From assembly GCA_965248925.1 (NCBI GenBank), contig CBDFLE010000006.1, positions 2,336,001 through 2,400,000 on the forward strand: 64,000 nt of DNA, given 5' to 3'. The stretch is from Candidatus Multivoradales bacterium. GTDB lineage: Bacteria > Acidobacteriota > Thermoanaerobaculia > Multivoradales > J023. The notes under the pieces are model-generated. The model was not told where the DNA came from, did no database searches, and saw only the letters and a program-made list of their open reading frames with translations. Made by a program: the position numbers and the translations under genes. This document shows positions 608 to 56,061 of this stretch, in pieces (within the stretch, counting starts at the first letter, position 1; each line of letters opens with the position of its first letter).

Positions 608-635
608 CAGTTCTTTGCTCGCAAGGTCCAGAATC

Positions 636-1100
636 TCAGTCTTGCTCCGCTGACCAGCGATCGAGAACTTGAAAGCAAACCCGCAGGAACTCTCGGTCCG
701 CCGGCTCGATCTGCTGTTTGCCACCGCGCTGCAAGTAGTCGGCGATACGCCACGCGGCGAAGGCTTCGCGGCTCATGCTGCGGGCCACTAGAAGTTGCTC
801 GCTCTCCAGCACCCGCTCGCGGCCGCTGTGGATCGACACCACCGCATACTCCACCAGCTTGACCATTGAATCGGCGAGATCTTGGGCTGCGCTGACTCCG
901 GAACTGCCAGTGCCAACCGGGATCAGGCCACCCGCCAGCCGGCCCGAGACGGTGTCGTAGCTCTCTCCTGCCAGGCCGTGGAACCCACGGGCCGCTTGGG
1001 CAAACATCTCACTGCCGGCGGCGAAGGCATCCACCGGCATCAGCGCCAGCCGACCACAGCGGCTCAGTATTCGACCAAAACCCGAATTCAGCTCGCTCAT
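636..1100 (-). CDS. Hypothetical protein in the lipid/PKS operon
   Basis: 154 aa ORF, co-oriented in the operon, with GGAG upstream of the ATG. No recognisable family. Confidence 0.7.
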   Translation of the reverse strand: MSELNSGFGRILSRCGRLALMPVDAFAAGSEMFAQAARGFHGLAGESYDTVSGRLAGGLIPVGTGSSGVSAAQDLADSMVKLVEYAVVSIHSGRERVLESEQLLVARSMSREAFAAWRIADYLQRGGKQQIEPADREFLRVCFQVLDRWSAEQD

Positions 1101-1148
1101 CTCGTCTCCAAGGTCACCGGGCCACGGCTGCTCTTGGCCCGGCAGAGT

Positions 1149-4045: not shown

Positions 4046-4062
4046 AGCTCAGGATCCAGAAT

Positions 4063-4443
4063 CTAGCTGTCGGCGGCTGCAGCGACTGTTTCGCTCGCCG
4101 CCCCAACTTCGGCCTTGTTGCTCAGCGTACTCCAAGAACGATCCACGGTTTCCCAGCCACGTTTCATCGCCTCCCCCAGAACTTCACCGGGCTTCGACCA
4201 CTCGCCACTAGCCAGGTCGGTGAGGGCGTTGACCATCCCCCCTTGGAACTCGTCGCCCGCCCGGTAGACATTGCGCACCGTCTCGCCCATCTGGCCCTCG
4301 GCGGCGTGGCTGAGGGCATCGAAGGCCGAAGTGGACTTACCCCAGCCTTCACCCGGCAACAGCAGTTGACTCGCCTGGCGTAGGCCGAGCATCGACATCG
4401 CCCAGGAGAAGCGGAACATAGATTTGGTCAGATCGCGCATCAT
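4063..4443 (-). CDS. Small amphipathic-helix protein (phasin-like by character)
   Basis: 126 aa with an AAAGGA RBS. MMRDLTKSMFRFSWAMSMLGLRQ matches the N-terminus of the next gene. Confidence 0.75.
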   Translation of the reverse strand: MMRDLTKSMFRFSWAMSMLGLRQASQLLLPGEGWGKSTSAFDALSHAAEGQMGETVRNVYRAGDEFQGGMVNALTDLASGEWSKPGEVLGEAMKRGWETVDRSWSTLSNKAEVGAASETVAAAADS

Positions 4444-4466
4444 TTTTTCCTTTCGTTGCTAGTTGA

Positions 4467-6188
4467 TCATCTCACCAACACCCACAGGCGGCACAATAAG
4501 ACCACCGCGGCAGCGCCGGCAAAGGTCAGCTGTGCGGTCCACAGATTAGCGCCCAGCGCTGGCGGCGGCGGGCTGAGGGTCAAGGCCAGGGTGGCCAGGA
4601 GCAGCGCCGCGACGAGCCCGGCCACCCGCCATCGCATCGCCGCCCGGTCGGCCGGGGGGCCTGGCTTGGCGCTCAGCGGCAGTTCACCGGCGGTCAGCCG
4701 GTCGAGCAAGCGGCTGGCGCGGCGCGGCCCATGCTCAAACAACTTGCCGCTAGCGGCGGAGAAGTCGAGCAGACGCTGGGCGGTAAAGCGCTCGCGGCGA
4801 CCCTGCCAAACCAGATATCGGGCACAAGACTTGGCCAAATAAGCACCCACCTCGAACGTCGGCTCGAAGCGAGTGATCAAGCCATCGATGGCAATCGCCG
4901 AACGGATGTACTTGACAATTGCCCGCTCCGGTAGCACACCGGTCTTGCGCGACAGGGTAAGCATCTCACCCATGATGCGGGTGAAGTTGGCGTGCAAGCG
5001 CTGCGCTTGGCCGCTGTCGGGCTGGTAGTCCTCGTACCAACCCGCGGCCAGCCGGTCGAGGCCGACGCGAAAACCCTGCAAGTCGGACTTCGGGCCAATG
5101 CTGGTGACTTGCAAGAAGTCATGGTTGAGGCGCTGCATATCGCCTTCGGCCAGGGCCAAGGTCATCGCCACCAGGTGGCGCCGAGAATAGCGACTCATCA
5201 GGCCGGTGATGCCAAAGTCGACATAGCCCACCACGTTGTGGTCGAGAATCAGCAGATTCGCCGGATGCAGGTCGGCATGGTAGATACCGTTCTCAAAAGC
5301 ATCGCCAAGAAAGTTGTCGATGATGTTGGCGGCAAAACGCACCGGCTCGAAGCCGCGCTGAGCCAAGCGCTCGGCCAGCAGCGAGTCTCCCCGTTCGCGG
5401 CCGCGCAGGTATTCGAGCAAGGTGACGCCGTTAAGAAACTCCATCACCAAGATGCGCCGGGTGGTGAACTCCTCCCACACTCGCGGCACATGTTGCACCG
5501 GGTTGTCAGCGGCGTGAATAGCCAACCTCTCAGCGTACCGCGCCTCATTGCGGAAATCGATCTCCTCTTCGGTCCAAGCAATGAATTCGCTGGTTGGTTC
5601 CACCAGCCAATACAGGGGTCGCAAGCGCAACCATTGAATCAGCCGCACCACCGCCACCATCAGGCGAATATCGCTGCCGAAGTCCTGCTCGACATCGGGT
5701 CGCTGGATTTTCACCGCTACTTTTTGGCCGTCCAACCAAGCCACATGGACCTGCCCCACGGAGGCGGTGGCCAGCGGCTGGCGGTCGAAATCAGTAAAAA
5801 CTTCTTCGAGGCCCCGACCGTGTTCGGCGCGGAAGATCTCGTCCGCCAGGGTAAAAGAAAAGGGCTCGATGCGATCAAGCAGATTAAACAGTGCATTGCA
5901 GTATTCGAGCGAGATGATGTCGGGCTGCAGGGCCAGCATCTGACCGAACTTGATAAAGGTGCCGCCGATATCCTCAAGCACTTGACGCAAGCGATCTGGA
6001 GGCGCCAGGTCGCCGGCGGGCAAGCGCCGCGCCAGTCTCGGCCAACGCTCGAGCCGCTGGCCCAGGCCCAGCGACAGACCATGCCGAGCCGCCACCGCAA
6101 CTATGCGCAACAAGCGGCGCCCGCTCGACAACAGCAAACTTCCCCAGCCCAGTCGATCCCAGACTAGCCGGCGCCAGAGGAACTTCAT
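4467..6188 (-). CDS. ABC1/UbiB (AarF) family atypical kinase/ATPase
   Basis: KFGQ (KxGQ), ATASVGQVH, VAVKIQRP, YHADLHPAN and VDFG motifs, plus two C-terminal TM segments. Confidence 0.92.
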   Translation of the reverse strand: MKFLWRRLVWDRLGWGSLLLSSGRRLLRIVAVAARHGLSLGLGQRLERWPRLARRLPAGDLAPPDRLRQVLEDIGGTFIKFGQMLALQPDIISLEYCNALFNLLDRIEPFSFTLADEIFRAEHGRGLEEVFTDFDRQPLATASVGQVHVAWLDGQKVAVKIQRPDVEQDFGSDIRLMVAVVRLIQWLRLRPLYWLVEPTSEFIAWTEEEIDFRNEARYAERLAIHAADNPVQHVPRVWEEFTTRRILVMEFLNGVTLLEYLRGRERGDSLLAERLAQRGFEPVRFAANIIDNFLGDAFENGIYHADLHPANLLILDHNVVGYVDFGITGLMSRYSRRHLVAMTLALAEGDMQRLNHDFLQVTSIGPKSDLQGFRVGLDRLAAGWYEDYQPDSGQAQRLHANFTRIMGEMLTLSRKTGVLPERAIVKYIRSAIAIDGLITRFEPTFEVGAYLAKSCARYLVWQGRRERFTAQRLLDFSAASGKLFEHGPRRASRLLDRLTAGELPLSAKPGPPADRAAMRWRVAGLVAALLLATLALTLSPPPPALGANLWTAQLTFAGAAAVVLLCRLWVLVR

Positions 6189-7849
6189 TCAGCAGGCCCC
6201 GCGGAGTCCCAGAGATTGCCAAAGAAGATCGACCGACGTTGCTCCCTCATCTCGACCAAGGTGCTGGCGATACGCTCCTTGATCTGCCGGCCCACCGCCC
6301 GCACCACTGCCGGATCCTCGGCTGCTTCGGGGCCATATTGGAGTTCGACATGGACCGGTTCGAGAAATTGAGTATGCCACTTGGAAGGCAGCGGCACACT
6401 GCCCATGGTGGGCGTGATCGGCAAGAACGGCCATTCACTGAGACGTTTGAACCAGGCCCATTCGATGCGGCCGAAAATAGGAAAGATCTCCGCCGAACCA
6501 ACAGTCACGAAGGGCACGATCGGCACCTGATGGCGAAGCGCCATCTTGACGTACTCGTGACGCGCAAAACGGCGCAAGGTGTAAGCATCGCGATACATGC
6601 AGAAAGCACCGCGGATGCCCTCTGGGAAGACCCCGATCAGATGACCGCGAGAGAGCGCCCAATCAGCGTTGTCATGCGACGCATGGATGCCGCCGAGCTT
6701 GATGATGTAAGGCGCCAGGAAGGGGAACTTCGCCAACGCCGGGTGGATCAGAAAGCGCGGATAGCGCCCCAGCTGGCGCGCTAGCAGGTGTAGCAGCATC
6801 ACCGCATCCCAGGGCTGATGACCGCGGTGAACCCCCACCAACACCGCCGCTCCCTGCCGTGGTACATGCTTCAGACCCCGATGCTCGATGCGCCACCAGG
6901 CGTCGTGCAAGAAACGAAAGAGAGTGCGCCCGAGACGGTCGATGTAAACCCGGTCCATGCCAAAGGGGTCAAATTCGTCGTCTTGATGCGGAACAACAGT
7001 CGCCGGCAGAGATGTACCCTGAGACTTCGCCGCCGCCAAAGCGCGCAACGCGGCGGCGCTGGTGTATCGAGGCTCGAAGCCGAGCTGCTCAGCGATCTTG
7101 ACCGCTGACACCGTTGCTGGATAGCACCGGCCATCGAGCTGGCCCTTGGGCACTAGCCAGCGCACCAGCCAAGACGGCAGCGGCAAGCGGCGCACCCCCG
7201 CCAGAGCCAACGCGCGCCGCTGCGGCACCACCGCCGAGGGAGCAACATTCAACACGCCGAGCGGGCACTCCTCGAACACTCGCCGCAGAGCCGACGCCAG
7301 ATCATCCGGCGCCAGCACCTGCAGCGACGGATCGAAACCGATGGGCGTTACCGCCACCGCGCCACTGAACAGGCGACTCGCCCCATCCTCACCTCCCGGC
7401 ACCGCGGTAGGCGCCGCCCGCAGCACCGTCAGGCGCTTCTCGCCCACCACCTCGAGCGCCCGAGCCTCAAGCCGACGCCAGCTCGTGGCCATTGGATTTT
7501 CCTGCCGAGAAGTGCCACCGAAAACCTCGTCGACCATTCCAGGATGGTGGTGGCTCGACTGATGAATCGCACTGCTGGCCAGTACGATCAGCCGACATGC
7601 CGACAAGCGGCCGAGGTGATCGAGCAAACTGCCAGCCGCGGCCGCGGCGAGGTCTCCATCGGCATGCTGGGAGGCCGCCCAGACCACCGTATCGACCCCT
7701 TCGCCGGGAGCCAGAAGTTGGTCCAAAGAACGGTCGTCGAGAGACGCTCCGCTACAGCTGGCCACCGCTGGGCTAACGGCCAGAGCAGCCACCAAAAGCT
7801 CACGCAGGGGGGCATGGGGCGCGCAGACCAAGACCTTGGCAGACATCAC
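6185..7849 (-). CDS. Fusion of degenerate NAD-dependent epimerase/SDR-like domain and PlsC/LPLAT acyltransferase
   Basis: The C-terminal half has DPFGMD, VHRGHQPWD, FPEG and LPSKW. The N-terminal half is extended-SDR-like (LTVLRAAP, DPSLQVLAPDDLA, LGFEPRYTS) but lacks GxxGxxG and YxxxK. Confidence 0.85.
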   Translation of the reverse strand: MMSAKVLVCAPHAPLRELLVAALAVSPAVASCSGASLDDRSLDQLLAPGEGVDTVVWAASQHADGDLAAAAAGSLLDHLGRLSACRLIVLASSAIHQSSHHHPGMVDEVFGGTSRQENPMATSWRRLEARALEVVGEKRLTVLRAAPTAVPGGEDGASRLFSGAVAVTPIGFDPSLQVLAPDDLASALRRVFEECPLGVLNVAPSAVVPQRRALALAGVRRLPLPSWLVRWLVPKGQLDGRCYPATVSAVKIAEQLGFEPRYTSAAALRALAAAKSQGTSLPATVVPHQDDEFDPFGMDRVYIDRLGRTLFRFLHDAWWRIEHRGLKHVPRQGAAVLVGVHRGHQPWDAVMLLHLLARQLGRYPRFLIHPALAKFPFLAPYIIKLGGIHASHDNADWALSRGHLIGVFPEGIRGAFCMYRDAYTLRRFARHEYVKMALRHQVPIVPFVTVGSAEIFPIFGRIEWAWFKRLSEWPFLPITPTMGSVPLPSKWHTQFLEPVHVELQYGPEAAEDPAVVRAVGRQIKERIASTLVEMREQRRSIFFGNLWDSAGPAE

Positions 7850-7894
7850 GATCCCCCTACACTAGCGCCATTTTTCAACTCCAGCCGCACCAGT

Positions 7895-9442
7895 TCACCA
7901 GCCGGCGGCTACCGCCGCTCGCCCGGCCACTTCGTCGAGCGGCCAGGGCACTGAAGAGGTCGCACCGGCGACCTCGGCGGCGACCTGTTGGGCGGAGACG
8001 ATCACCGGTGTAATGCCACCTCCCGGCCGGGTCCAATGGCCGACCAGATAGAGATTCTTGATCGGCGATTCGATTCCCGGCCGGCGGCTGCCGAGTTGAT
8101 CGGGCGACATTTCCCAACCCAGCATGGCGCCAAACTTATTGCCGGTAAATCGCCAAGAAGTCAGGGCTGAGGCACTCACTTGGACAACGATCTTGCGCGA
8201 GATCCCCGGCACCAGATCTTCGAGGTGCGAGACCACGTAGTCTTCCACCTCGCGCTTGTGCGCCGGCCAATCGGTGATCTCTCGGTAGTCGAGCTGCTGC
8301 ACTTTTTGCAGGATCACCACCTGCCCGCCAACCGGCGCCATCCGTGGCTCGTAGACCGTCGGCACGAAAACCTTGCAGCGCAAACCCCCGTCGCCCACTT
8401 GATCAGGGTCCCAGGAATTCCAGTAGTAACCCTGCACCGCCTCCAGCACCTCGGGTTCGATATCGCGCAAGCCGATGTGGGTTAAGAAGCAAGGAAAACT
8501 CGGACGCAGGGATCGCACTTGCTTCAGGTAAGCCGGGTCCAGCACCCCGGCGGGTAGCAACCGCTCTAGGGTTTGCAGCATGTCGGCGTTGGAAATCACC
8601 GTTCGCGCCAGTACCCGCCGCTGGCCCTGCAAAGGGCCGCGCAGAGTCTTCAACTCGACACCCTGAGCGCGGCCATCTCGCACCAAGATGTGCTCGGCGC
8701 GGGTACTCATCAGAATGTGGCCACCGCGAGCCTCGAAACAGCGCGCCAGCTCGTCGGCGAAAGCCTGCGATCCCAGTACCGGATAGTAGTTGCCGAGAAA
8801 GTAGGACAACCGCAACATCGAGTCGAAGACAAACGAAGTCCGGGCCGGCGGCGAACCCCAATGCGGACAATCAGCGGTCAACAGCAGCTTCAACTTCCGG
8901 TCGGTGAAATGCCGATCGAGCACCTGGCGCACAGAAAGATCTCGGTAACGCTCCAGACGCGGCGTCTCACGACCCCTGAAATAGGCCAGCAAGCCGAGTA
9001 AGTAGGCCTCGCGAACCTCGCTGAAAAATTTATCGAGGTTGGCCTGCTCGGCGGGGAATGCCTGCTTGACCATGGCCAGGTAGGTGTCGAAATCCCCCGG
9101 TACCTCGAACTTGCTGCCATCGGGAAAGTGAAAAGTATCGACCGGGTCCATTTTCACCCAGCCGGTCTCCACCCCGAGCTCGCCGAGCAACTTGCCAGTC
9201 AAGGTGAGGGGATTGCCCAGCAGCGGATAGAAGTGGGTAGCGGCATCAAAGGTGTAGCCCTTGCGCCGGAAGGTGCTGCAATAGCCACCCACCATGTAGT
9301 GCTGCTCGACCAGCAGCACTTTCAGACCTTCGCGGGCCAGCAAGTTGGCGGTGACCAAGCCGCCGACCCCGGCACCGATGATCACCGTGTCGTAGGCCGG
9401 CTCCGGGGCCTCGCGGCGCAGCCCTCTGAACAAGCGTTTCAC
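7895..9442 (-). CDS. FAD-dependent oxidoreductase, phytoene desaturase/CrtH/retinol saturase (COG1233) family
   Basis: IGAGVGGL...VEQHYMVGG...GYTFDA dinucleotide-binding motif and C-terminal NLYLVGHWTRPGGG. Confidence 0.88.
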   Translation of the reverse strand: MKRLFRGLRREAPEPAYDTVIIGAGVGGLVTANLLAREGLKVLLVEQHYMVGGYCSTFRRKGYTFDAATHFYPLLGNPLTLTGKLLGELGVETGWVKMDPVDTFHFPDGSKFEVPGDFDTYLAMVKQAFPAEQANLDKFFSEVREAYLLGLLAYFRGRETPRLERYRDLSVRQVLDRHFTDRKLKLLLTADCPHWGSPPARTSFVFDSMLRLSYFLGNYYPVLGSQAFADELARCFEARGGHILMSTRAEHILVRDGRAQGVELKTLRGPLQGQRRVLARTVISNADMLQTLERLLPAGVLDPAYLKQVRSLRPSFPCFLTHIGLRDIEPEVLEAVQGYYWNSWDPDQVGDGGLRCKVFVPTVYEPRMAPVGGQVVILQKVQQLDYREITDWPAHKREVEDYVVSHLEDLVPGISRKIVVQVSASALTSWRFTGNKFGAMLGWEMSPDQLGSRRPGIESPIKNLYLVGHWTRPGGGITPVIVSAQQVAAEVAGATSSVPWPLDEVAGRAAVAAGW

Positions 9443-10704
9443 CGCTCTTCCTCGGCCTCCGGCTCGATCTCGGGCTCGGGGGGATTGCGACCATAGGTTT
9501 CGTGCGCGACCACGAACTCGCCGCTGCCGATGGCGCCGCCCATCGACAACTCACCTGCCAGAATCGTCGCAGCGAAAATCTCAGCCAACCGCAGGGCATC
9601 CCCCGTCCCCTCGCAGCCGAGCATCGCCAGGCACTCGCGGCTGGTCCCGAGGCCGGTGCCGCCGCCGACCGTGGCCACCGACAGAGAGGGCAAGGTCACG
9701 CTGGCGTACAACCCGCCGTCGGCAGTGAGTTCGAAATTGGTAATGCCGACCGCCGAGTTGGCGACATTGGCGACGTCTTGACCGCAAGCGATGTAGAGCG
9801 CGGTCAAACCGTTGGCGTAATGGCCGTTGTAGCCTAGAGCACCCGCCTGTAGATGGCCAAGAACGGTGTGATGCCACATATGCACCAGTTGCTCGGGCAA
9901 GAGGTGCAGGACCGATTTCACCACCTGTCGCGGCAACCGCGCTCCGGCCACCACTTTCTTGCCCTTACCCCCCGCCAGTACCGCGCCGCTGGCGCGCTTC
10001 TCCGAGTTGTAGCCGCTAAAAACGTAGTACCGCTCGCTACCGAGGTTGCTGGCAATCCACTGGCAGATCGCTTCCACTGCCTTGACGATCATATTCATGC
10101 CCTGGGCGTCGGCGGTATGAAAACGGCAGTTGACGATCACCTCCCGCCCCACCGGCAGACACTCCAGCGCTAACAAACGACCGTGGGAGGTCGTCGCTTC
10201 GGCCACCTGTCGCAAGTCGTCAAAAGCAGCCTCAACCCGAGCCGCGAAATCGTACGCTTCGGCCACGCCGGCGAGAAAGAAGACTGGTGCGACCCGGTTC
10301 TCGTCCAACCACACCCGGGTTACCGCACCGCCGGCCCGGGTCAGGGCAACCATTCCTCGCTCATAAGAGCGCACCAAGGCCCCTTCGGTGGTTGCCAGCG
10401 GGACGTAGAACTCCCCCTTTGCGTGCTCGCCCCTTAGCCGCAAAGGGCCAGCGACGCCGAGGGGCATCTGGACCGCGCCGATGGGGTTCTCGATATTGCC
10501 GCGAAACTCCTCGCTGGGCAGGCTCGAGCGACCGACATGCGACAGTTGGGTGTCGGTGCGCTGCTCCACCCAAGCCCGGCGGCGAGCCACCAGATCAGCG
10601 CTGTAGCCTTGGTCCTTATAACGTGGTACCAAGCGGATACGCTGCCGCTCAGGCTCTACCAGAACCGGGCGCGCGGGTGCCTCTGTAGGCGAGCTTCTGG
10701 ACAT
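9439..10704 (-). CDS. Class I HMG-CoA reductase-like protein
   Basis: ENPIG, PLATTEGAL, DAQGMNM, ACGQD, TVGGGT and the C-terminal His (VAHE). Start taken at ATG 10704, just after the upstream stop. Confidence 0.9.
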   Translation of the reverse strand: MSRSSPTEAPARPVLVEPERQRIRLVPRYKDQGYSADLVARRRAWVEQRTDTQLSHVGRSSLPSEEFRGNIENPIGAVQMPLGVAGPLRLRGEHAKGEFYVPLATTEGALVRSYERGMVALTRAGGAVTRVWLDENRVAPVFFLAGVAEAYDFAARVEAAFDDLRQVAEATTSHGRLLALECLPVGREVIVNCRFHTADAQGMNMIVKAVEAICQWIASNLGSERYYVFSGYNSEKRASGAVLAGGKGKKVVAGARLPRQVVKSVLHLLPEQLVHMWHHTVLGHLQAGALGYNGHYANGLTALYIACGQDVANVANSAVGITNFELTADGGLYASVTLPSLSVATVGGGTGLGTSRECLAMLGCEGTGDALRLAEIFAATILAGELSMGGAIGSGEFVVAHETYGRNPPEPEIEPEAEEER

Positions 10705-10705
10705 C

Positions 10706-12019
10706 TCAAGAACCCCCGGTAGTAGGTTCCCCGGCCGCCACACGGGCCAAGCCCGCACCACGTTCGAGCACCAAGGCGGCGATGTTGCCATCGAGTCCGA
10801 CAGTATCGACCAAGCCCAATCGCAAGTCGGCCACGGGCGCCGGCGAGGTCAGTGGCGCCAGACACCAGCGAGACAGCTCCTCCTCGAGGCCAGCGATACT
10901 CGGCACCAAACCATCCAGCATGGCGCCCAACAGGGCCACCACTTGCAATGCGCCGGCGGCGCCGAAGGTTTCGCCGAGAATCGACTTGCTGGCCATCACC
11001 GGCAGTTTGCCGGCGTGTTCGCCAAACGCCGCCACCAGTCCCGCGGCCTCGTTCAGGTCGCCCCGCGGACTGCCGTTGGCCGAGGCACTGACTAGGTCAA
11101 TCTGCGCCGGCTCGAGCCCGGCATCGGCCAAGGCAGTGGTGATGGCATAGCATAAAGCGGCGCTGGCGGACTCTGGCTGCTGACCACGGGAGAGGTCATA
11201 ACAACTGGCATGGCCGCGAATCTCAGCCAAGATGGTGGCCCCGCGGCGTTCGGCGAGGGAGGCTTCCTCGAGCATCAGCAGGGCGGCGCCTTCACCAGCG
11301 GCGAAACCGTTGCGACGGCCATCGAAGGGCACGGCACAAGCCGGTTGGCCATTCGTCGCGGCAGCCAACATGCCCGCTTGGTCGAAGCCGCAGAAAGACT
11401 CGAAACACAATTCTTCGGCACCACCGGCGAGCAGCATCTCGGCGCGACCGGAGCGAATCAGGTCGGCACCCTGGGCGATCGCCTGCAAACCCGCCGTGGT
11501 GCCGCCGGTGAAAGTCGAGTTGACCCCGCGCAGACCGTGCCAGATCGCTGCCTGGCCCGCCGCCGCGTTGATCACCGTATTGGCGAACACCAGCGGTTTG
11601 GCATAGTTCGGCCCGGCGGTCTGTGCCCGCACATCGAATTCAGAGATGGTGTGCACACTGCCAAACATCGTCCCCAGCACCAATCCAAGTTCATGCTCGG
11701 CCCGCGCCTCAACGCTCCAACCGCTGGCGGCGAGAGCCAGCTGGGCAGCCACTACGGTCAGTCGCCCGGTACGGTCCAGCGGTCGCAGATTGACCTTGCC
11801 GAGATACTCCAGCGGCGCGAAATCGCGAATCTCGGCACCGAGCGCGGTCGACAAGGACGAGGTATCGAACATCTCCACCGCCGCCAAACCGCTGCACCCC
11901 TGGCGTTGAGCCGCCCACAAGGCCACCGGTGAGTCGCCCACCGCCGACAGCATCCCCACCCCGGTGACCACCACCCGCCGCTCACCTCCTGCCTCCGCTA
12001 GGCCGTTCGCCCTACTCAT
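10706..12019 (-). CDS. Ketosynthase-like chain-length-factor (CLF) type subunit, catalytically inactive
   Basis: KS fold with the catalytic Cys absent (TGGTTAG), HGTGT replaced by SANGS, and GH replaced by GE (KSILGET). Confidence 0.85.
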   Translation of the reverse strand: MSRANGLAEAGGERRVVVTGVGMLSAVGDSPVALWAAQRQGCSGLAAVEMFDTSSLSTALGAEIRDFAPLEYLGKVNLRPLDRTGRLTVVAAQLALAASGWSVEARAEHELGLVLGTMFGSVHTISEFDVRAQTAGPNYAKPLVFANTVINAAAGQAAIWHGLRGVNSTFTGGTTAGLQAIAQGADLIRSGRAEMLLAGGAEELCFESFCGFDQAGMLAAATNGQPACAVPFDGRRNGFAAGEGAALLMLEEASLAERRGATILAEIRGHASCYDLSRGQQPESASAALCYAITTALADAGLEPAQIDLVSASANGSPRGDLNEAAGLVAAFGEHAGKLPVMASKSILGETFGAAGALQVVALLGAMLDGLVPSIAGLEEELSRWCLAPLTSPAPVADLRLGLVDTVGLDGNIAALVLERGAGLARVAAGEPTTGGS

Positions 12020-13233
12020 CCGGCATACCGCCGGAAAAGCACCGAGGCATTGTTGCCACCAAAGGCATAGGCGTTGTTCATCGCCACCTCGACCGCTAGT
12101 TGGCGCGCCTCGTTGGGTACGCAGTCGAGTTCACACTGCGGATCAGGCTCGGAAAAATTCATGGTGGGCGGGATCTCGCTCTGGTCGATCGCCAAACAGC
12201 AGATAGCGCTCTCGATAGCCGAGGCAGCGCCCATGGTGTGGCCGATCATCGATTTCACCGAACTGATCGGCAGCCGCGCGAGGCCATCACCAAAGACTCG
12301 CTGCACCGCCAAAGTTTCGAGGCGGTCGTTGGTCGGTGTGCCAGTACCGTGGGCGCTGACGTAGCTGACCGCCGCCGGCTCGATACCACTAGTCGCCAAA
12401 GCCTGCTCCATGGCGCGGGCGGCACCATCGCCCTCGGGATGGGCAGCGGTCATGTGATGGGCGTCGCAGGAGAGGCCAAAGCCAGCCATCTCAGCGTAGA
12501 TCCGCGCCCCCCGACGCCGCGCGCGGTCGAGAGTCTCGAGCACCAACACCGCCGCCCCCTCGCCCGGGATCATCCCCTTGCGATGGAGGTCAAACGGCTG
12601 GCAGATCTCCGGTGCGATCGCCCCGAGGCGGGCAAAACCGGTGTAGGTGATGCGCGAGAAAGAGTCGGCTCCGCCGGCCAACATGACCTCGGCGCGACCG
12701 GCGCGCAGCGCATCGAAAGCATAGGCCATGGCGTAGTTGCCGGCCGCGCAGGCGGCGGGGATCATCGCATTGATGCCGCCGAAGCCGACTTCGACCGCGA
12801 CCTGGCCGGCGATCACATGACAGGGATAAGCGTGGGCAAACCGAGGGCCGAGCTGATCGAGGCTGTCGGCCATCATGCGATCGTCGAAATGCTCGACCTC
12901 GCGCGGCTCACCCGAAGTAGTGCCCATCACCACACCTGCTCGATGAGGATCCGCGGGGCGCTCCAGGCCGGCATCTTCGACCGCCTCGTGGGCAGCGCAG
13001 ATCGCCAGTTGGGAAGCGCGGCCAACCTGTGTCGGATCCAGTAGTCGCAGGGCCAGCGCAGGGTCAAAACCCTGAATCTCGGCACCCAGCTTGGCCCGAT
13101 GCTTGCTTGTGTCGAACGAGGTCACGGCACTGAAGCCACTGCAGCCAGCGAGCAGCTGGCGCCAGCTCTGATCGCGGTCGGTGCCCACGGGCGTAACCGC
13201 ACCGATGCCGGTGACGACGACCCGTGGCAACAT
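12016..13233 (-). CDS. Beta-ketoacyl-ACP synthase (FabF/type II PKS KS)
   Basis: Intact Cys-His-His triad: PAACAAG, SAHGTGT, KSMIGHT. Also NNAYAFGGNN. Confidence 0.95.
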   Translation of the reverse strand: MLPRVVVTGIGAVTPVGTDRDQSWRQLLAGCSGFSAVTSFDTSKHRAKLGAEIQGFDPALALRLLDPTQVGRASQLAICAAHEAVEDAGLERPADPHRAGVVMGTTSGEPREVEHFDDRMMADSLDQLGPRFAHAYPCHVIAGQVAVEVGFGGINAMIPAACAAGNYAMAYAFDALRAGRAEVMLAGGADSFSRITYTGFARLGAIAPEICQPFDLHRKGMIPGEGAAVLVLETLDRARRRGARIYAEMAGFGLSCDAHHMTAAHPEGDGAARAMEQALATSGIEPAAVSYVSAHGTGTPTNDRLETLAVQRVFGDGLARLPISSVKSMIGHTMGAASAIESAICCLAIDQSEIPPTMNFSEPDPQCELDCVPNEARQLAVEVAMNNAYAFGGNNASVLFRRYAG

Positions 13234-13234
13234 C

Positions 13235-13513
13235 TCAGGCTACTTCCTCGGCGGCGCCCACGTCGAGATGCTCCAGCACCAGGTCGACCGAATCCTGCAC
13301 CGTGCGCAACTCCTGTAAGCGCTCTTCCGGCACCCCGAGCTTGAACTCGAAATCGACGTCGACCCCGATCTCCATCAAGGACAGAGAATCCAATTCCAAA
13401 TCATCGATAAAAGAAGCATTGTCGGCGATCTCCGCCGGCTCGATGCTAGTGACATTGGAGATGATCTCCTTGATCTTGGCCCGAATCTCCGGGATCTTAT
13501 CTGTGACAGCCAT
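13235..13513 (-). CDS. Acyl carrier protein
   Basis: 92 aa acidic protein with the DLELDSLSLMEI phosphopantetheine site. Confidence 0.95.
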   Translation of the reverse strand: MAVTDKIPEIRAKIKEIISNVTSIEPAEIADNASFIDDLELDSLSLMEIGVDVDFEFKLGVPEERLQELRTVQDSVDLVLEHLDVGAAEEVA

Positions 13514-13746
13514 TCCCTACTTCCTCCAGCTTGCGGTGGCGCTGCTCAGTCAGCACGCGACGGTAGGAGGACGGCCGGCAAGGCCGCCTCCCGATCTCTT
13601 CCCCTGATCTCGAGAATCATCGACTCACTCCAGCGCCACGGACGGTCAGAAACTCCGCAGACAACCAAAGTAACTCAGCACAGATGCTATAGCCGGCTCG
13701 GTAGAGCAGCAATGGCTCTGGTGGTGCAAAAAAGATCTAGTGCCTC

Positions 13747-14484
13747 CTACCTTGCCGCCGGCCAACCCGGTAGGGACTGCTCCATCAGACCGAGTGCCAG
13801 AGCGCGCCGAATCGCTCCGCGGCGCTGCCCGACACCGAGCTTGTCGAGGATCTTGTGAACATGATTCTTCACCGTTGGCAGGCTGATCGCCAGCCGTTGA
13901 GCGATTTCCTTGTTGCGCAAACCTCCGCCGATTAGCCTTAGCACCTGATCCTCCCTTGGCGTCAGCCGCACCACCACCTGCTCACGGGATTTCACCGGCA
14001 ACTGCTCAGCCAGCTCAGAGATGCGACTGAGCACGCTAGCCGCCAGTCGCGGCGTACACGGTGGCCGGTTGGCGAGCACATCGGCAATCGCCTGGCGCAA
14101 CTCAGCCAATCCAGCGGCGGCAGGCAAATGCCCACTGGCCCCCTCTTCAATCAGCGCCAGCCCCTCGCGCTCGCCGTCGACGCCCAACACCAGCACTTTG
14201 GCGCGAGGATACTGCCGCCGAGCCCAGCGGGTCGCGACGCGGGTCTGGCCCGCGCCGCCGAGGGCATCGATCAGCACCACCTTCGGCACGTTATTCGGCA
14301 CATTGTTCGGCACAGAATTCGCCGCCGAGCCCGGCTCCGCAACACATCCATCAGCGTCCGGTGCAGCTATTGTCCGCAAGCAGGCGGTGGCGCCAAACGT
14401 GGCCACCAAAGCCTGCGCCACCAAGGGTGAGGGGTGGACGAGCCACACCTCCGGGCGGTGGCCATTGGCGGCCACGTCCCTCAC
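13747..14484 (-). CDS. LuxR/NarL-family regulator with degenerate receiver domain
   Basis: LTPREDQVL...NKEIAQRL.ISLPTVKNHVHKIL HTH. Start assumed at GTG 14484, overlapping the upstream TGA. Confidence 0.85.
   Translation of the reverse strand: MRDVAANGHRPEVWLVHPSPLVAQALVATFGATACLRTIAAPDADGCVAEPGSAANSVPNNVPNNVPKVVLIDALGGAGQTRVATRWARRQYPRAKVLVLGVDGEREGLALIEEGASGHLPAAAGLAELRQAIADVLANRPPCTPRLAASVLSRISELAEQLPVKSREQVVVRLTPREDQVLRLIGGGLRNKEIAQRLAISLPTVKNHVHKILDKLGVGQRRGAIRRALALGLMEQSLPGWPAAR
14282..14320. repeat. Imperfect 12-bp tandem repeat (about 3 copies) encoding VPNN in the LuxR gene
   Basis: ttcggcacgtta ttcggcacattg ttcggcacagaa. Protein reads SVPNNVPNNVPK. Confidence 0.8.
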
Positions 14485-15170
14485 CCGGCCTCCCGCACCA
14501 AGCGATGGCGACGATCCCTGATCCAACCATGACGATAGGCATGGCGCACCGCCGCGCCGCGATCGCCAACCTCGAGCTTCTCGAAAATGTGATGCACATG
14601 GTTCTTGACCGTGTAGACCGAGAGGTTGAGCTGCTCGGCGATCTGCCGGTTGCTCGAATCATCGGCGATCAGCTGCAAGATCTCGATCTCGCGCGGGGTC
14701 AGCTTGAAGACCTCGGCGCGGTCGTGCTCTCGGCGTTGTCGCGCCACGTCGGCCAAGCGGGTGAACAGTGAATCGGCGATATCGGTCGAACAAAGCACCT
14801 CGCCTTGCAGCACCCGGTCGAGGGTGTCCACCAGCTTCCCCCAGTGGTTTTCCTTACCCACGAAAGCGTCTACGCCGGCCTCGACACAACGCAGAATCGC
14901 CCGTTGATGCAGCGGTAAACCAAGGACCACGACCTTCGGTGCCGGCTCCATTTGGCGCGTCTCGCGAACCAGACAGCCGAGGCGCTCCTTGGCTCTGTTG
15001 ATATCGATCAGCAACAAGTCCGGCGGCTCGGCGCGCACCGCGGCCAGCGCAGATTCCGGCCGCTCGGCAACCGCCACCGAGAAGCGAGGGCCCGAAGAAA
15101 GATGAGCTGCCAACGCCTCCCGCGCCACCCCATGACAGCTGTAGAGCAGAATCCGCGACCGTCGGCTCAT
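14481..15170 (-). CDS. LuxR/NarL-family response regulator (atypical receiver)
   Basis: PDLLLID, FVGK and LTPREIEIL...TVKNHVHHIFEKL. Start likely ATG 15170. Confidence 0.9.
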   Translation of the reverse strand: MSRRSRILLYSCHGVAREALAAHLSSGPRFSVAVAERPESALAAVRAEPPDLLLIDINRAKERLGCLVRETRQMEPAPKVVVLGLPLHQRAILRCVEAGVDAFVGKENHWGKLVDTLDRVLQGEVLCSTDIADSLFTRLADVARQRREHDRAEVFKLTPREIEILQLIADDSSNRQIAEQLNLSVYTVKNHVHHIFEKLEVGDRGAAVRHAYRHGWIRDRRHRLVREAG

Positions 15171-15453
15171 CCGCCGTTCTCCCGTCAAACAAGACATCCA
15201 CCCGCCCGGTTCCGCAGCCATCAAGCGGCTCGGGCGGCAGCAAATGTCCCTGCTGCTGAATCTGAATAGCTAAAGCGATCGAGCTGAGATTAGCATATTG
15301 CCGAGCCGGCAAACCAAGCCGCCGAATGGTTTGCACCGACCGGCGCAGGATGACTGAAATTGACCAGCCGCAGAGGTTTCTACCCTCGGCAGCCGACGGC
15401 CAAGAGACTCTGAGCTAGGAACGTCGGCCGTTCTTGTGGTGAGGGCGCAGAGA

Positions 15454-17724: not shown

Positions 17725-17743
17725 GGGGGCTTGGCTAACCAGT

Positions 17744-18517
17744 CTACACCGTGAAGGGCGAGTCAACGGCCGCCCACCTCGGTGTCTCGTCCAATTCGGG
17801 CCGTCCGGCGAGGATCTCGTGCGGCTGATAGCGGGCTTTGTAGCGCATGCTCTGGTTACCCTCGACCCAATAACCCAGGTAGAGGTTTTCTACTCCCCGA
17901 GTCTTGGCCAAGAGCAGCTGCTGCAGCACCGAGAAGACCCCTAGGCCGCGCTGGCGCAAGTCGGGATCGTAGTAGCAATAGACCGCTGATACCGCCTTGG
18001 GCAGCAGGTCCACCAACGCCACCCCGACCAAATTGCCATCGAGCACAAATAGCAGTTCGTGGCCAAAGTCGTGCTGGCCGTCGACAAAGGTGAAGAAGTA
18101 TTCCTCGGCAGTGATCGCTTTTTCTTTCCAACCGCGACGGTGATGCATGTCGCGGTGATAGCGCTGGTAGAGATCGAGATGGGCGGCCGTGACGCAGGGG
18201 CGGCCGAGCAAGGTGTGGAGATCTTGATTGCGCTTGCCAGTGCGCCGCATCGAGCGGTTGGGGGCAAAGCTGTCGACCGCCACCCGCAGGCTGCGGCACT
18301 GCTGGCAATTGGCACAGACCGGGCGAAAAAACGCCCGGCCAAAACGTCGCCAGCCGCGCCCGAGCAAGCGCTGATAGTCCTCTGCGGGACAAGCGCCGAT
18401 GACCCGGTAGGCCATTTGCGAGGTCAGGTCAGGGAGGTAAGGGCAGGGCTCGCCCGCGCTGAGTTCCTCGGTGATCGAGCCGAGCACCGTGAGGCTACCC
18501 GCCGCCGGGTCTCTCAT
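17744..18517 (-). CDS. bpt: Bacterial ATE1-like aspartate/glutamate leucyltransferase (arginyltransferase family)
   Basis: CPYL, GWRRFG, RPVCANCQQC, SAVYCYYDPD, YLGYWV..SMRYK. Confidence 0.92.
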   Translation of the reverse strand: MRDPAAGSLTVLGSITEELSAGEPCPYLPDLTSQMAYRVIGACPAEDYQRLLGRGWRRFGRAFFRPVCANCQQCRSLRVAVDSFAPNRSMRRTGKRNQDLHTLLGRPCVTAAHLDLYQRYHRDMHHRRGWKEKAITAEEYFFTFVDGQHDFGHELLFVLDGNLVGVALVDLLPKAVSAVYCYYDPDLRQRGLGVFSVLQQLLLAKTRGVENLYLGYWVEGNQSMRYKARYQPHEILAGRPELDETPRWAAVDSPFTV

Positions 18518-20604: not shown

Positions 20605-20633
20605 AGTGTTCGGATCCTGAGTCTTGTAGCCGT

Positions 20634-30637: not shown

Positions 30638-30640
30638 CGT

Positions 30641-30674
30641 GTTACTTTCTCCACCGCGTTACTTTCTCCACCGC
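30641..30674. repeat. Perfect 17-bp tandem duplication
   Basis: gttactttctccaccgc twice, between the divergent sulfatase and glgP starts. Confidence 0.95.
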
Positions 30675-30713
30675 TCGGGGCCTGCTGCCCCGCATCCTTC
30701 GGAGACCCTTGCC

Positions 30714-56058: not shown

Positions 56059-56061
56059 GGC

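Follow-up and report, generated by a model that had tools for sequence, protein, structure and literature searches.

A 64,000-nucleotide stretch of the genome of a Candidatus Multivoradales bacterium (hereafter the window) carries an operon with a gene for a class I HMG-CoA reductase (HMGR) homolog that is not the cell's HMGR. The protein probably releases an acyl-ACP by four-electron reduction, yielding a fatty alcohol that goes into a lipid. The original prediction had proposed such a repurposing, with mevalonate supply as an alternative. Its first part, conversion of an acyl thioester to an alcohol in a ketosynthase (KS)- and ACP-dependent lipid pathway, is supported because the gene is a paralog of a canonical HMGR, its product has lost the binders of the HMG carboxylate with the catalytic tetrad kept, synteny and CLF-HMGR fusions tie it to the KS module, it passes a co-fold with the ACP, and FcrA offers a precedent (PMC11948995); the mevalonate-supply alternative was not borne out.

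The HMGR-like gene and its operon

The HMGR-like gene is intact. Counted from the first ATG, the open reading frame listing places it at 9439..10791, and an ATG at 10704, one base past the stop codon of the upstream CLF gene (TGA-g-ATG), gives the 421-aa protein whose limits had been predicted. These limits are confirmed, and the protein matches PF00368, its sole Pfam domain, over the full length (353.6 bits, profile positions 2-368 of 368); the claim that the gene abuts the CLF gene is likewise correct. The catalytic residues named in the original prediction were all found, as Glu107 in ATTEG, Lys236 in NSEKR, Asp310 in CGQD, and His401 in VVAHE (421-aa numbering), and DAMGMN does read DAQGMN, at residues 199-204. 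The top Foldseek match of an AlphaFold monomer was the HMGR of M. thermolithotrophicus (6hr7_A, E 2.7e-32), followed by human HMGR. Because the active-site loops of this model are unreliable (pLDDT below 50 at residues 60-79 and 230-246, 74.2 for the monomer), it was used for fold assignment only and kept out of the pocket analysis.

As shown in Table 1, the HMGR-like gene is surrounded by genes on the same strand that overlap by 4 nt or are separated by 1 to 48 nt; the 4-nt overlaps include those of the CLF start with the KS stop and of the CrtI-like start with the HMGR-like stop. The operon structure rests on this spacing, because a scan of positions 1-15500 gave counts of promoter-like and terminator-like sites (2 and 13) that did not exceed those in shuffled sequences (2.1 and 13.0). 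The Asp42, Ser43, and Leu44 residues of the ACP are invariant in 20 orthologs. The CrtI-like protein matched CrtI 4dgk over its full length (4.2e-25) and scored 158.6 bits with the crtI_fam model, against a cutoff of 238.1. In the acyltransferase, the N-terminal ∼300 residues adopt an extended-SDR fold (model pLDDT 77.6; Foldseek matches to epimerase/reductase folds, E 2e-11, probability 1.00) that lacks the Gly-rich and YxxxK motifs, and the C-terminal part is PlsC-like. Pfam searches detected no ketoreductase (KR), dehydratase (DH), or enoyl reductase (ER) in the operon, and neither an HMG-CoA synthase nor a prenyltransferase is encoded there. The 432-, 126-, and 154-aa proteins matched no Pfam family even at E ≤ 5 and none in NCBIfam. 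The LuxR-type pair may regulate the operon; relatives were seen upstream at 12 of the best 80 of 409 loci.

Table 1. Genes of the HMGR-like operon and its upstream region, with positions in the window
Feature	Position	Strand	Evidence
HMGR-like acyl-thioester reductase, candidate (clade A, 421 aa)	9439..10704	-	PF00368 1.6e-105
Dedicated acyl carrier protein, 92 aa, Ser43 in LDSL	13235..13513	-	PF00550 2.2e-10
Active ketosynthase, FabF-like, Cys162/His295/His332	12016..13233	-	triad; best PDB match 9s5h_B
Catalytically dead KS partner (CLF-like), Thr/Ser/Glu at triad	10706..12019	-	best PDB match 9s5h_C
CrtI-family FAD oxidoreductase, 515 aa, candidate acyl-chain desaturase	7895..9442	-	PF01593 4.9e-21
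Two-domain acyltransferase, 554 aa	6185..7849	-	PF01553 1.1e-11, residues 320-448
ABC1/UbiB-family atypical kinase, 573 aa	4467..6188	-	PF03109 4.8e-55
Small conserved protein, 126 aa	4063..4443	-	same operon position in 14/80 loci
Conserved protein, 432 aa	2747..4045	-	Atlas: hypothetical Acidobacteriota clusters only
Second, divergent ABC1-like protein, 533 aa	1149..2750	-	PF03109 9.1e-19
Small protein, 154 aa, possibly last operon gene	636..1100	-	weak relatives in 6/80 loci
Two LuxR-type regulators upstream, one with receiver domain	13747..15224	-	GerE 3.3e-16, 1.4e-18; Response_reg 1.9e-07

The ketosynthase-pair context was as predicted, with an active KS and a dead partner directly upstream of the HMGR-like gene. 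The label CLF is correct because Thr, Ser, and Glu replace the Cys/His/His triad in the adjoining FabF homolog. The KS triad is kept in 61 of 61 orthologs, and the Cys is missing from all 66 CLF orthologs, whose second His is replaced by Glu in 64 and Asp in 2. In the PDB, the best matches of the two proteins were the two chains of one entry: 9s5h_B for the KS (454.2 bits; the next, a FabF, 311.3) and 9s5h_C for the CLF (229.7 bits; the next, 199). This entry is probably the Brocadia pair and would fit the pair of the anammox "ladderane cluster." In the window KS, Cys and His1 are 133 apart, the same spacing as for Cys165/His298 given in a preprint (10.64898/2026.05.19.726425).

Species-representative genomes gave 409 loci, and in the best 80 of them we compared the neighborhoods of the HMGR homologs, counting a gene only where the locus has room for it. 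A KS adjoined in 56 of 64 loci, a CLF in 63/74, and an upstream ACP in 54/60, with a CrtI-like gene in 65/71, the acyltransferase in 47/57, and an ABC1 kinase in 29/53. The clade order is ACP, KS, CLF, HMGR-like reductase, CrtI-like flavoenzyme, SDR-like/PlsC-like acyltransferase, and ABC1 kinases. The operon is spread over Acidobacteriota and several other phyla, including metagenome-assembled genomes (MAGs) labelled Latescibacterota, Poribacteria, Nitrospinota, and Zixibacteria. The best 80 loci all come from MAGs, with no cultured carrier among them, and our literature search turned up no report of this operon. The window protein is 60% and 62% identical to two in-frame fusions of CLF and HMGR. 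An apparent HMGR-CrtI fusion at locus L055 (genome G033) was rejected: a stop-free frame spans both genes, yet it reflects a 1-nt assembly frameshift, and a different frame encodes the normal HMGR C terminus, with its catalytic His and stop. Eight of the 64 loci with room have no adjoining KS, and an orthologous KS (538 to 587 bits) was found elsewhere in the genome in 5 of 5 genomes of this kind. Strict co-occurrence of module and reductase does not hold, as two of five reductase-free genomes (G001 and G011) still have the ACP-KS-CLF module, followed by other genes; in G011 an RPE65-family oxygenase lies alongside.

Divergence from mevalonate-pathway HMGRs

Whole-genome searches found two HMGR homologs. 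The other copy, 41% identical to the window copy (163/398), keeps every HMG-binding residue and lies in an operon of the order IDI2-HMGR-MVK-MDD-IPK, with an HMG-CoA synthase gene elsewhere in the genome; no Dxr was found in the genome, which is 96.9% complete. With the NCBIfam model TIGR00533 the window protein scored 321.3 bits and the paralog 439.9, and here the 118-bit gap is informative rather than the cutoff of 441.8, because the canonical paralog also scores below it. The claim that the window encodes no HMG-CoA synthase, thiolase, or mevalonate kinase agrees with both searches: Pfam scans of 35 large window open reading frames detected no mevalonate genes, and all above-cutoff matches to these three enzymes in the genome lie outside C6:2336001-2400000. 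Within the window, the thiolase search gave two weak matches, which correspond to the KS and the CLF. Mevalonate genes did not neighbor the HMGR homolog at any of 20 fetched loci of window orthologs. Dependence of a mevalonate pathway on the window gene, which the original prediction had named as evidence against repurposing, was not found, because the pathway has its own HMGR. The window gene is thus not the cell's HMGR and is very unlikely to supply mevalonate, for a hybrid isoprenoid product or otherwise.

The original prediction had asked whether KS-linked HMGRs form a clade. Our homolog search scored 8,000 candidates, 7,473 of them at E ≤ 0.001, and trees of 42 and 46 rows were built in which the window orthologs (clade A, 21 rows), a middle group (clade B, 9 rows), and the HMGRs of mevalonate operons (clade C, 12 rows) each occupy one side of a branch (SH-aLRT 99/100/100 in the 42-row tree; UFboot/aLRT 100/100 in the 46-row tree). 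The window orthologs do form a clade, at SH-aLRT 99 and UFboot/aLRT 100/100. The HMGR of a Streptomyces mevalonate cluster joins clade C at 100/98, and IDI2 adjoins HMGR in 12 of 12 clade-C loci. In a tree without a class II outgroup, the window protein is set apart from canonical HMGRs at 100/98-100, and one unresolved node gives rise to clade A, clade B, and the Vibrio/Sinorhizobium homologs. Clade A is a clade of its own, separate from mevalonate-linked HMGRs and apparently also from FcrA.

The catalytic residues, Glu559, Lys691, Asp767, and His866 in human numbering (PMC11948995), are unchanged in all three groups, with the exception of one clade-A row from a frameshifted assembly that has a gap at the His column (E107, K236, and D310 in 21/21 rows, H401 in 20/21). 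Human Lys735 forms a salt bridge with the HMG carboxylate (PMC9500038). Its column holds Lys in 12 of 12 mevalonate-linked rows and in Streptomyces, and varies in clade A (H10/D4/L2/R2 and others), with His279 in the window protein. The column that we take to be that of human Arg590 holds Val, Ile, or Leu in 21/21 clade-A rows (V138 in the window protein) and Arg in 12/12 canonical rows. At the Ser684 column, an assignment cross-checked by FcrA's Glu in clade B, 18 of 21 clade-A rows have Phe (F229) and all 12 canonical rows Ser, and at the Asp690 column the corresponding residues are Glu in 21/21 (E235) and Asp in 12/12. Arg replaces Ala564 and Glu replaces Asn567 in every clade-A row. Among the three groups, the changes at the Arg590, Ser684, Asp690, Ala564, and Asn567 columns are seen in clade A alone. 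The Lys692 column holds R237 in the window protein and Lys in 12/12 canonical rows; R116, at the human Arg568 column, is kept. The clade-specific residues of the window protein are R112, E115, V138, F229, E235, R237, W277, and H284. Clade B has all three FcrA signature residues (E 9/9, V/I 9/9, W 9/9), the Trp being at the Leu862 column, where clade A has Phe in 14 rows (Phe397 in the window protein), Leu in 5, Met in 1, and one gap. The FcrA N-terminal domain PF25653 was present in the two clade-B members scanned and absent from the window protein, and a search of the whole genome did not detect it either.

Predicted docking of the operon ACP

Co-folding with the ACP had been proposed as a check of the original prediction. 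The HMGR-like dimer and the operon ACP reached a score of 0.68, against 0.14 for the best of three controls, and thus passed. Of 80 solved complexes, 58 reach this mark, as do 2 of 110 mismatched pairs; these counts apply only roughly here, because the fold had three chains and relied on our own alignments. Agreement between runs covered at least 91% of contacts, with a partner pLDDT of at least 83. In the modeled interface, ACP residues 42-44, including Ser43, lie against R112, E115, R116, and V119, and the other subunit contributes a further contact with the ACP through its conserved N-terminal segment (residues 22-32). The phosphopantetheine serine is therefore predicted by the model to sit on the clade-specific R112/E115 pair. 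We know of no solved HMGR-ACP complex, and passing a co-fold is not equal to binding.

Proposed function and relation to known systems

Taken together, these data suggest a neofunctionalized class I HMGR that would no longer act on HMG-CoA and would convert a fatty acyl thioester to a primary alcohol by unchanged HMGR chemistry, that is, by two NADPH-dependent hydride transfers at the Glu/Lys/Asp/His tetrad via a bound thiohemiacetal/aldehyde. We infer the substrate, its attachment to ACP rather than CoA, the order of the steps, and the final product as follows. Most likely, the substrate would be an acyl chain on the ACP encoded in the operon; the KS/CLF heterodimer, aided by housekeeping FabG/Z/I, would prime or elongate this chain, and the adjoining CrtI-like flavoenzyme might desaturate it. 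The HMGR-like reductase would be the chain-release step, and the SDR-like/PlsC-like acyltransferase would then use the alcohol to form an ester- or ether-type lipid.

FcrA is a class I HMGR-derived fatty acyl-CoA reductase (Grossi et al. 2025, ISME J, PMC11948995). Like the window protein, FcrA has the HMGR fold, keeps the Glu/Lys/Asp/His tetrad, has lost the HMG-carboxylate lysine, occurs as a second copy beside a canonical HMGR, and is linked to PlsC-like acyltransferases; ACP-fused forms are also reported, and the N-terminal Lad domain (PF25653) is described in only certain FcrA proteins. The same report describes the characterized FcrA as acting on acyl-CoA, not acyl-ACP, which stands against release from ACP and favors an ordinary FcrA-type reductase that would turn the free acyl-CoA pool into fatty alcohols for wax-ester synthases, with the KS/ACP neighborhood reflecting co-regulation rather than channeling. 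That R116 is kept, that the genome has two WS/DGAT genes above cutoff, and that it has no FcrA with an N-terminal PF25653 domain fit this alternative. However, the WS/DGAT genes lie far from the operon, the reductase gene is translationally coupled to CLF and CLF-HMGR fusions exist, and the clade-specific R112/E115 pair lies in the modeled ACP interface. In contrast to FcrA, the window protein lacks the Lad domain, has Phe rather than Glu at the Ser684 column and clade A mainly Phe or Leu rather than Trp at the Leu862 column, has lost the Arg590-column Arg that FcrA keeps, is set in an ACP-KS-CLF operon, and is predicted by the model to dock ACP. We therefore regard an FcrA-type reductase as unlikely. 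Against the main reading, we note that the genome has other possible alcohol-forming reductases, with 12 NAD_binding_4 matches.

Because clade A lacks FcrA's Glu, Trp, and Arg590-column Arg, the substrate may differ from a plain fatty acyl chain. The enzyme might act on an unusual thioester, either a 3-hydroxy- or 3-oxo-acyl-ACP from the KS/CLF, which would give a 1,3-diol, or a polyenoyl-ACP, or it might stop at the aldehyde for the flavoenzyme. Besides the pocket unlike that of FcrA, the operon lacks KR, DH, and ER, and the surroundings of the HMG 3-hydroxyl are conservative, with Glu at the Asp690 column, Lys691 kept, and Arg at the Lys692 column. Carotenoid-type tailoring enzymes also accompany the KS/CLF module, a CrtI-like protein here and the RPE65-family oxygenase in G011, and the CrtI-like partner in anammox and Desulfotalea clusters was proposed as an acyl desaturase (PMC2649909). 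Housekeeping fatty acid synthesis enzymes could nevertheless provide the missing steps, and all four catalytic residues for both hydride transfers are kept, and we consider an unusual substrate or product quite improbable. That the protein is a true HMGR giving mevalonate, for instance for a hybrid polyketide-isoprenoid product, fits the intact fold and tetrad and the isoprenoid flavor of the CrtI-like and ABC1/UbiB genes but is extremely unlikely, given a separate copy with all HMG binders in the mevalonate operon, the altered Lys735, Arg590, and Ser684 columns, an operon without HMG-CoA synthase or prenyltransferase, and the finding that FcrA, which has likewise lost Lys735, is inactive in reducing HMG-CoA (PMC11948995).

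Other known systems can also be compared with this proposed release of an alcohol. Canonical class I HMGRs (6hr7, human 1dq8/1dq9, and the paralog) match the window protein in fold, tetrad, and length, with 38 to 40% identity to 6hr7 and 41% to the paralog, and differ in their HMG binders, mevalonate neighbors, and TIGR00533 score (440 bits for the paralog and 321 for the window protein). The anammox "ladderane Cluster I," kuste3603-3608, is described as amxACP, amxFabZ, amxFabF2, amxFabF-mut, a phytoene-desaturase homolog, and a B12 radical-SAM enzyme (PMC2649909, PMC4790861). It shares with the window operon a dedicated ACP, an active FabF, an adjoining dead-triad FabF with the second His replaced by Glu, and a CrtI-family flavoenzyme; the window operon has neither FabZ nor the radical-SAM gene and adds the HMGR-like reductase, the acyltransferase, and the ABC1 kinases. 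For the window ACP, 9s5i_E (36.8 bits) is no better a match than other ACPs are.

The myxobacterial ether-lipid proteins ElbD/MXAN_1675 combine the same activities, a carrier-bound acyl chain, a four-electron reductase, and a PlsC/GNPAT-like acyltransferase, according to a review (PMC9131029). MXAN_1675 has a FAR-like (SDR) domain fused to an acyltransferase, and by this description its domain order is that of the window acyltransferase. Unlike the window system, as described there, the reductase is a FAR of the SDR family rather than an HMGR and loading is by an acyl-CoA synthetase domain rather than KS/CLF; cofactor and catalytic motifs are absent from the SDR-like domain of the window protein. 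FAAL/AMP-binding-ACP-HMGR-like fusions of Riflebacteria and others also have an HMGR-like domain serving an acyl chain tethered to a carrier, but they are single polypeptides loaded by adenylation, fall on another branch, and are ∼40 to 46% identical to the window protein. We tentatively propose a previously undescribed lipid pathway in which a general module of ACP, KS/dead-KS, and CrtI-like protein, not specific to ladderanes, might make an unusual, probably polyunsaturated acyl-ACP; an ACP-docking HMGR derivative might release it, and the acyltransferase might convert it to an alcohol-derived membrane or storage lipid, possibly an ether lipid.

Genes of this clade are annotated everywhere as "hydroxymethylglutaryl-CoA reductase," a reading that wrongly predicts a mevalonate function across many soil and marine genomes. 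The clade would extend FcrA, described in 2025, from a CoA-dependent enzyme to a carrier-protein-dependent chain-release enzyme, and its predicted docking surface, R112/E115 and the N-terminal LVPR motif, is open to testing. The findings also link the anammox "ladderane" cluster, through its KS/CLF/flavoenzyme module, with an operon that is very common in Acidobacteriota and so provide comparison systems for an unsolved pathway. Ether-lipid and brGDGT biosynthesis in Acidobacteriota has been explained only in part, and the operon points to an alcohol-derived lipid in this phylum, whose membrane lipids serve as palaeoclimate proxies.

The reductase gene, its operon and the mevalonate route of the genome

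The HMGR homolog lies in a minus-strand reading frame listed at 9439..10791 among the ORFs of the window. An ATG at 10704 is positioned one base past the TGA of the upstream gene (TGA-g-ATG), and this spacing makes 9439-10704, encoding 421 aa, the likely gene, in agreement with the original prediction. The protein matched Pfam PF00368 with an E value of 1.6e-105 over profile positions 2-368 of 368, and every motif named beforehand was found in the translation: Glu107 (ATTEG), Lys236 (NSEKR), Asp310 (CGQD), His401 near the C terminus, and DAQGMN at 199-204. By sequence, the closest solved structure was 6hr7 (3.6e-83), and the AlphaFold model (mean pLDDT, 74.2) returned M. thermolithotrophicus HMGR (E 2.7e-32) and human HMGR (4e-28) as its top Foldseek matches.

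The gene belongs to an operon (636-13513) of eleven minus-strand genes that are tightly spaced, neighbors overlapping by 4 nt or lying 1-48 nt apart. Its acyltransferase has two domains, of which residues ~320-450 are PlsC-like. The first ~300 residues adopt an extended SDR/epimerase fold (model pLDDT, 77.6; Foldseek E 2e-11, probability 1.00, TM to target 0.60-0.70), and in 19 orthologs this part has no glycine-rich motif and carries an invariant Trp...Glu at the site where we take YxxxK to be expected. The SDR-like domain is probably noncatalytic; it may be what remains of a FAR-type reductase whose place the HMGR-like enzyme has taken, or it may serve as a lipid-binding module. Elsewhere, the window holds glycogen genes at 15454-20796 and 30597-32882 (a GlgB-like branching enzyme, a second CBM48/alpha-amylase protein, and a glycogen phosphorylase-like protein), which flank an arginyl-tRNA-protein transferase homolog (17744-18517), as well as two adjoining RND pumps accompanied by a membrane-fusion protein (49685-57198) and a 1037-aa protein containing two stretches of kinase domain (39559-42672). 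All of these genes look ordinary.

Features of the window operon and of the mevalonate operon in the same genome (window positions unless prefixed)
Feature	Coordinates	Strand	Remarks
ACP	13235-13513	-	
KS, FabF-like	12016-13233	-	Cys162/His295/His332
CLF, second FabF homolog	10706-12019	-	Thr/Ser/Glu at KS triad positions
HMGR homolog	9439-10704	-	PF00368
CrtI-family flavoenzyme	7895-9442	-	full-length match to CrtI 4dgk, 4.2e-25; score under crtI_fam cut-off
Acyltransferase, 554 aa	6185-7849	-	PlsC-like (PF01553) + SDR-like domain
ABC1/UbiB kinase	4467-6188	-	
126-aa and 432-aa proteins		-	no family found
Second ABC1-like protein		-	
154-aa protein		-	
Two LuxR-type regulators	upstream of operon		
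Mevalonate operon	L007:5322-12878 = G000:C6:811321-818877		

The original prediction had noted that mevalonate genes are missing from the window and that the rest of the genome should be checked for them. Pfam scans of 35 large window ORFs detected none, and in whole-genome searches the genes for HMG-CoA synthase and mevalonate kinase, like all four genuine thiolase genes, fell outside C6:2336001-2400000. Exactly two matches to PF00368 occur in the genome, which spans 7.98 Mb and is 96.9% complete. The second copy sits in an operon in the order type-2 IPP isomerase, HMGR, mevalonate kinase, (phospho/diphospho)mevalonate decarboxylase, and isopentenyl phosphate kinase, with HMG-CoA synthase apart from it. 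The two copies are 41% identical (163/398), and with TIGR00533 (cut-off, 441.8 bits) the mevalonate-operon copy scored 439.9 bits versus 321.3 bits for the window copy, which is a paralog and not the cell's HMGR. Dxr was not found in this 96.9% complete genome, so the mevalonate route is the sole IPP route found there. The decarboxylase (TIGR01240, 213.7 bits) is paired with isopentenyl phosphate kinase and the type-2 isomerase, a combination suggesting that the genome's only IPP source is a mevalonate route of archaeal style or mixed type.

Three clades of HMGR homologs and their substrate-site residues

Searched against 41 genomes from its family and order, the window protein scored 388 bits or higher at 33 places in 31 genomes (50-100% identity), about 288-334 bits at 18 places, and about 212-270 bits at the remainder. 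These score bands, set ahead of any tree, defined groups A (window orthologs), B (the middle group), and C (HMGRs of mevalonate operons). Regions of 20 kb were retrieved for 20 members of A (those on longer contigs), 9 of B, and 11 of C, and the window and its own paralog were added. In the resulting unrooted 42-row tree, each group formed one side of a branch (SH-aLRT 99/100/100), and an unrooted 46-row tree gave the same split (support 100/100). The tree proposed with the original prediction places the window orthologs in a clade of their own, with SH-aLRT values of 99 (42 rows) and 100 (46 rows). In the 46-row tree, a Streptomyces mevalonate-cluster HMGR grouped with C (100/98) and an Alteromonas plasmid homolog with B (100/99), while A, B, and a Vibrio+Sinorhizobium pair met at one node without resolution of their order. 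Group C genes adjoin IDI2 in 12/12 cases and MDD in 11/12. Group B homologs have an ABC1-like neighbor in 3/9 and neither mevalonate nor KS genes in any of the nine loci. In group A, the CrtI-like gene adjoins the reductase in 16/20 loci, KS and CLF lie upstream in 11/20 (ACP alone in 1), and the acyltransferase is found in 11/20.

The catalytic Glu, Lys, Asp, and His were invariant in all three groups. Human residue numbers used here are those of PMC11948995 and PMC9500038; in the latter, Lys735 forms the salt bridge to the HMG carboxylate. In this column, K was present in 12/12 of C and in Streptomyces, whereas A has H10/D4/L2/R2 and others, B has V7/I2, and the Alteromonas, Sinorhizobium, and Vibrio homologs have Y, A, and M, respectively. 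Specific to clade A are F18 plus L/Y/M at the Ser684 column, Glu at Asp690 (21/21), R19/H2 at Lys692, W277 (21/21), and H284 (19/21), and the first Met of DAMGMN is replaced by Q12/H6/S2/G1. At the columns that we take to be Arg590, Ala564, and Asn567, clade A has V16/I4/L1, Arg (21/21), and Glu (21/21), respectively; the arginine of the Arg590 column is kept by clade B and lost in clade A.

An HMGR-derived reductase type was published in 2025: Grossi et al. (PMC11948995) describe the class-I HMGR homolog FcrA as using NADPH to reduce acyl-CoA with chains of at least C14 to alcohols, as inactive on HMG-CoA, and as not inhibited by simvastatin. According to that account, a lipid-binding domain is present at the N terminus of some FcrA proteins and a fused ACP in some of those from bacteria, and FcrA genes are often close to PlsC-like genes and may feed ether-lipid synthesis. 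The FcrA signature reported there is Ser684 to Glu, Leu862 to Trp, and a small residue for the HMG-binding lysine, printed as Lys795 and read here as Lys735. Clade B matched all three (E 9/9, W 9/9, V/I 9/9), and the PF25653 N-terminal domain was found in both members scanned. Because of this fit, which also validates the column mapping, we take clade B to be FcrA. Clade A differs: its Ser684 column holds Phe, its Leu862 column holds F14/L5, and the N-terminal domain is absent. The substrate of FcrA is acyl-CoA, whereas a carrier-bound chain is proposed for clade A; since the clade A pocket is unlike that of FcrA, the chain may be unusual.

Other HMGR homologs were also noted. Many relatives have a third copy (L060:9021-10559 (+), L061:9394-10950 (-), and seven more within L059-L067) with the FcrA Glu/Trp/small residues in 9/9, and that of L060 comes after the haem genes hemA-hemC-hemD; the genome of the window has no FcrA-type homolog. 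In other lineages, HMGR-like domains (P0126-P0243) are fused to AMP-binding/FAAL domains with or without ACP (Riflebacteria and others), to APH/EcKinase phosphotransferase domains (Myxococcota, Actinomycetes), and to GHMP-kinase, DUF3419, or PilZ domains, a wide and largely unexplored diversification. Two plasmid homologs without the HMG-binding lysine, one in Sinorhizobium amid acyl-CoA carboxylase subunits and an MmgE/PrpD protein (L165:4540-9279) and one in Alteromonas near an AMP-binding protein and an SDR (L164:1175-7203), probably represent other nonmevalonate uses.

Distribution of clade A and its link to a ketosynthase module

Homologs of the window protein numbered 7473 of 8000 scored candidates at E ≤ 0.001, and the 120 listed were 66-96% identical and mostly from Acidobacteriota by source name. 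One 89% identical protein (P0003), filed in nr under the fish Nerophis lumbriciformis, almost certainly reflects bacterial sequence contaminating the fish assembly. A search of species-representative genomes confirmed 409 loci. The top-ranked 80 of these, about nine of which are the same places as in the 41-genome search, were all in MAGs and were labelled Thermoanaerobaculia, Pyrinomonadaceae/Blastocatellia, Terriglobia (Ca. Angelobacter, Ca. Solibacter, Bryobacteraceae), Vicinamibacteria, and Holophagales, with a few labelled Latescibacterota, Poribacteria, Nitrospinota, Zixibacteria, and others. Counted among these 80 only over loci with enough flank, the neighbors were KS (56/64), CLF (63/74), ACP (54/60), the CrtI-like gene (65/71), the acyltransferase (47/57), and ABC1 (29/53). 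The KS triad was intact in 61/61 orthologs, and the CLF lacked Cys in 66/66, its second His being Glu in 64 and Asp in 2. Two proteins, each known from one contig, join CLF and HMGR in frame through linkers that look natural (P0124, 869 aa, 60% identical; P0125, 787 aa, 62%). Where the reductase is not beside a KS, an orthologous KS was found elsewhere in the genome in 5/5 cases (538-587 bits; other FabFs, 276-330). Among five genomes without a clade A reductase, three lacked the orthologous KS and two had it (558 and 603 bits), which counts against strict coupling.

In one genome without a clade A reductase, G011, the genes after the orthologous ACP-KS-CLF encode an FAD-dependent protein, with a weak match to Trp_halogenase, and a carotenoid-cleavage-type oxygenase of the RPE65 family (341 bits; L176:8420-14529, G011:C9). 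Here the shared module carries another set of tailoring enzymes, which hints at an unsaturated chain. In many Blastocatellia/Thermoanaerobaculia loci, one or two pairs of FG-GAP/VCBS-repeat and UnbV_ASPIC proteins lie between the CrtI-like gene and the acyltransferase (L091:12836-17899, L083:12482-14683); in Ca. Angelobacter loci, a sigma-70-region-4/LuxR-like gene separates the reductase from the CrtI-like gene instead (L125:11273-12277).

Compared with solved structures, the KS of the window best matched 9s5h_B (454.2 bits; next FabF, 311.3) and the CLF 9s5h_C (229.7 bits; E. coli FabF, 199.1); the sister entry 9s5i also contains an ACP chain. A preprint (10.64898/2026.05.19.726425) describes the Brocadia fulgida amxFabF2/amxFabF-mut heterodimer and its ACP complex, and the Cys-to-His1 spacing of the window KS, 133, is the same as that of Cys165/His298 given there. 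The main text of the preprint contains no PDB codes; because chain composition and this spacing fit its description, we infer that 9s5h/9s5i are the Brocadia pair and its ACP complex. The pair belongs to kuste3603-3608, listed in PMC4790861 as ACP, FabZ, FabF, a noncanonical FabF, a phytoene-desaturase homolog, and a radical-SAM enzyme. In the dead FabF of that cluster, too, Glu replaces the second His (PMC2649909, Table 2). The CrtI homolog is reported to make no lycopene (PMC4790861) and has been proposed as an acyl-chain desaturase (PMC2649909), the latter source also noting similar clusters in Desulfotalea, a maker of polyunsaturated hydrocarbons. The window operon shares with the anammox cluster the module of ACP, KS, dead KS, and CrtI-like enzyme, but has the HMGR-like reductase and acyltransferase in place of FabZ and radical SAM.

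Predicted carrier-protein docking and a proposed route

A co-fold with the ACP had been suggested as a check of the original prediction. Two reductase copies and the operon ACP, modelled with our own alignments (A2 and A3), scored 0.68 versus 0.14 for the best of three controls, judged by a mark reached by 58/80 solved complexes and 2/110 mismatched pairs that is a rough guide for a three-chain model with such alignments. The runs shared at least 91% of contacts, with partner pLDDT of at least 83. In the confident modelled interface, the ACP contributes residues 21-25, 28, 40-45, 47-48, and others, its invariant serine lying within D42-S43-L44. One reductase subunit contributes R112, E115, R116, V119, and 260-267, and the other residues 22-32 and 41-45. 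R112 and E115 are the two clade A-specific substitutions next to the Arg that is conserved in the CoA site, and P27 and R28 are invariant in clade A. To our knowledge, there is no solved HMGR-ACP complex; the model supports binding of the reductase to the ACP.

Clade A is a distinct clade in which the HMGR catalytic machine is intact and the HMG binders are lost. Its operon membership is conserved, CLF fusions exist, and the ACP co-fold passes its controls. The core idea of the original prediction, reductive acyl-thioester release by a repurposed HMGR, probably holds in its essentials, supported by the paralogy, the lost HMG binders, the synteny, the fusions, the co-fold, and the FcrA precedent. 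Our literature search found no paper on clade A or the operon; the "putative FcrA" proteins of PMC11948995 may include such sequences. Clade A, its predicted ACP docking, its operon, and its apparent kinship with the anammox KS/CLF/flavoenzyme module appear to be undescribed.

A parallel set of carrier, four-electron reductase, and PlsC-like acyltransferase with an SDR-like domain is described for myxobacterial ElbD/MXAN_1675 (PMC9131029), although the reductases are nonhomologous. Wax esters are a possible alternative product, and the genome has two WS/DGAT genes, unlinked to the operon. In the route that we propose, a chain carried by the dedicated ACP would be built or extended by KS/CLF and perhaps desaturated by the CrtI-like enzyme, the HMGR-like enzyme would reduce the thioester twice and free a primary alcohol, and the SDR-like/PlsC-like acyltransferase would put this alcohol into a lipid.
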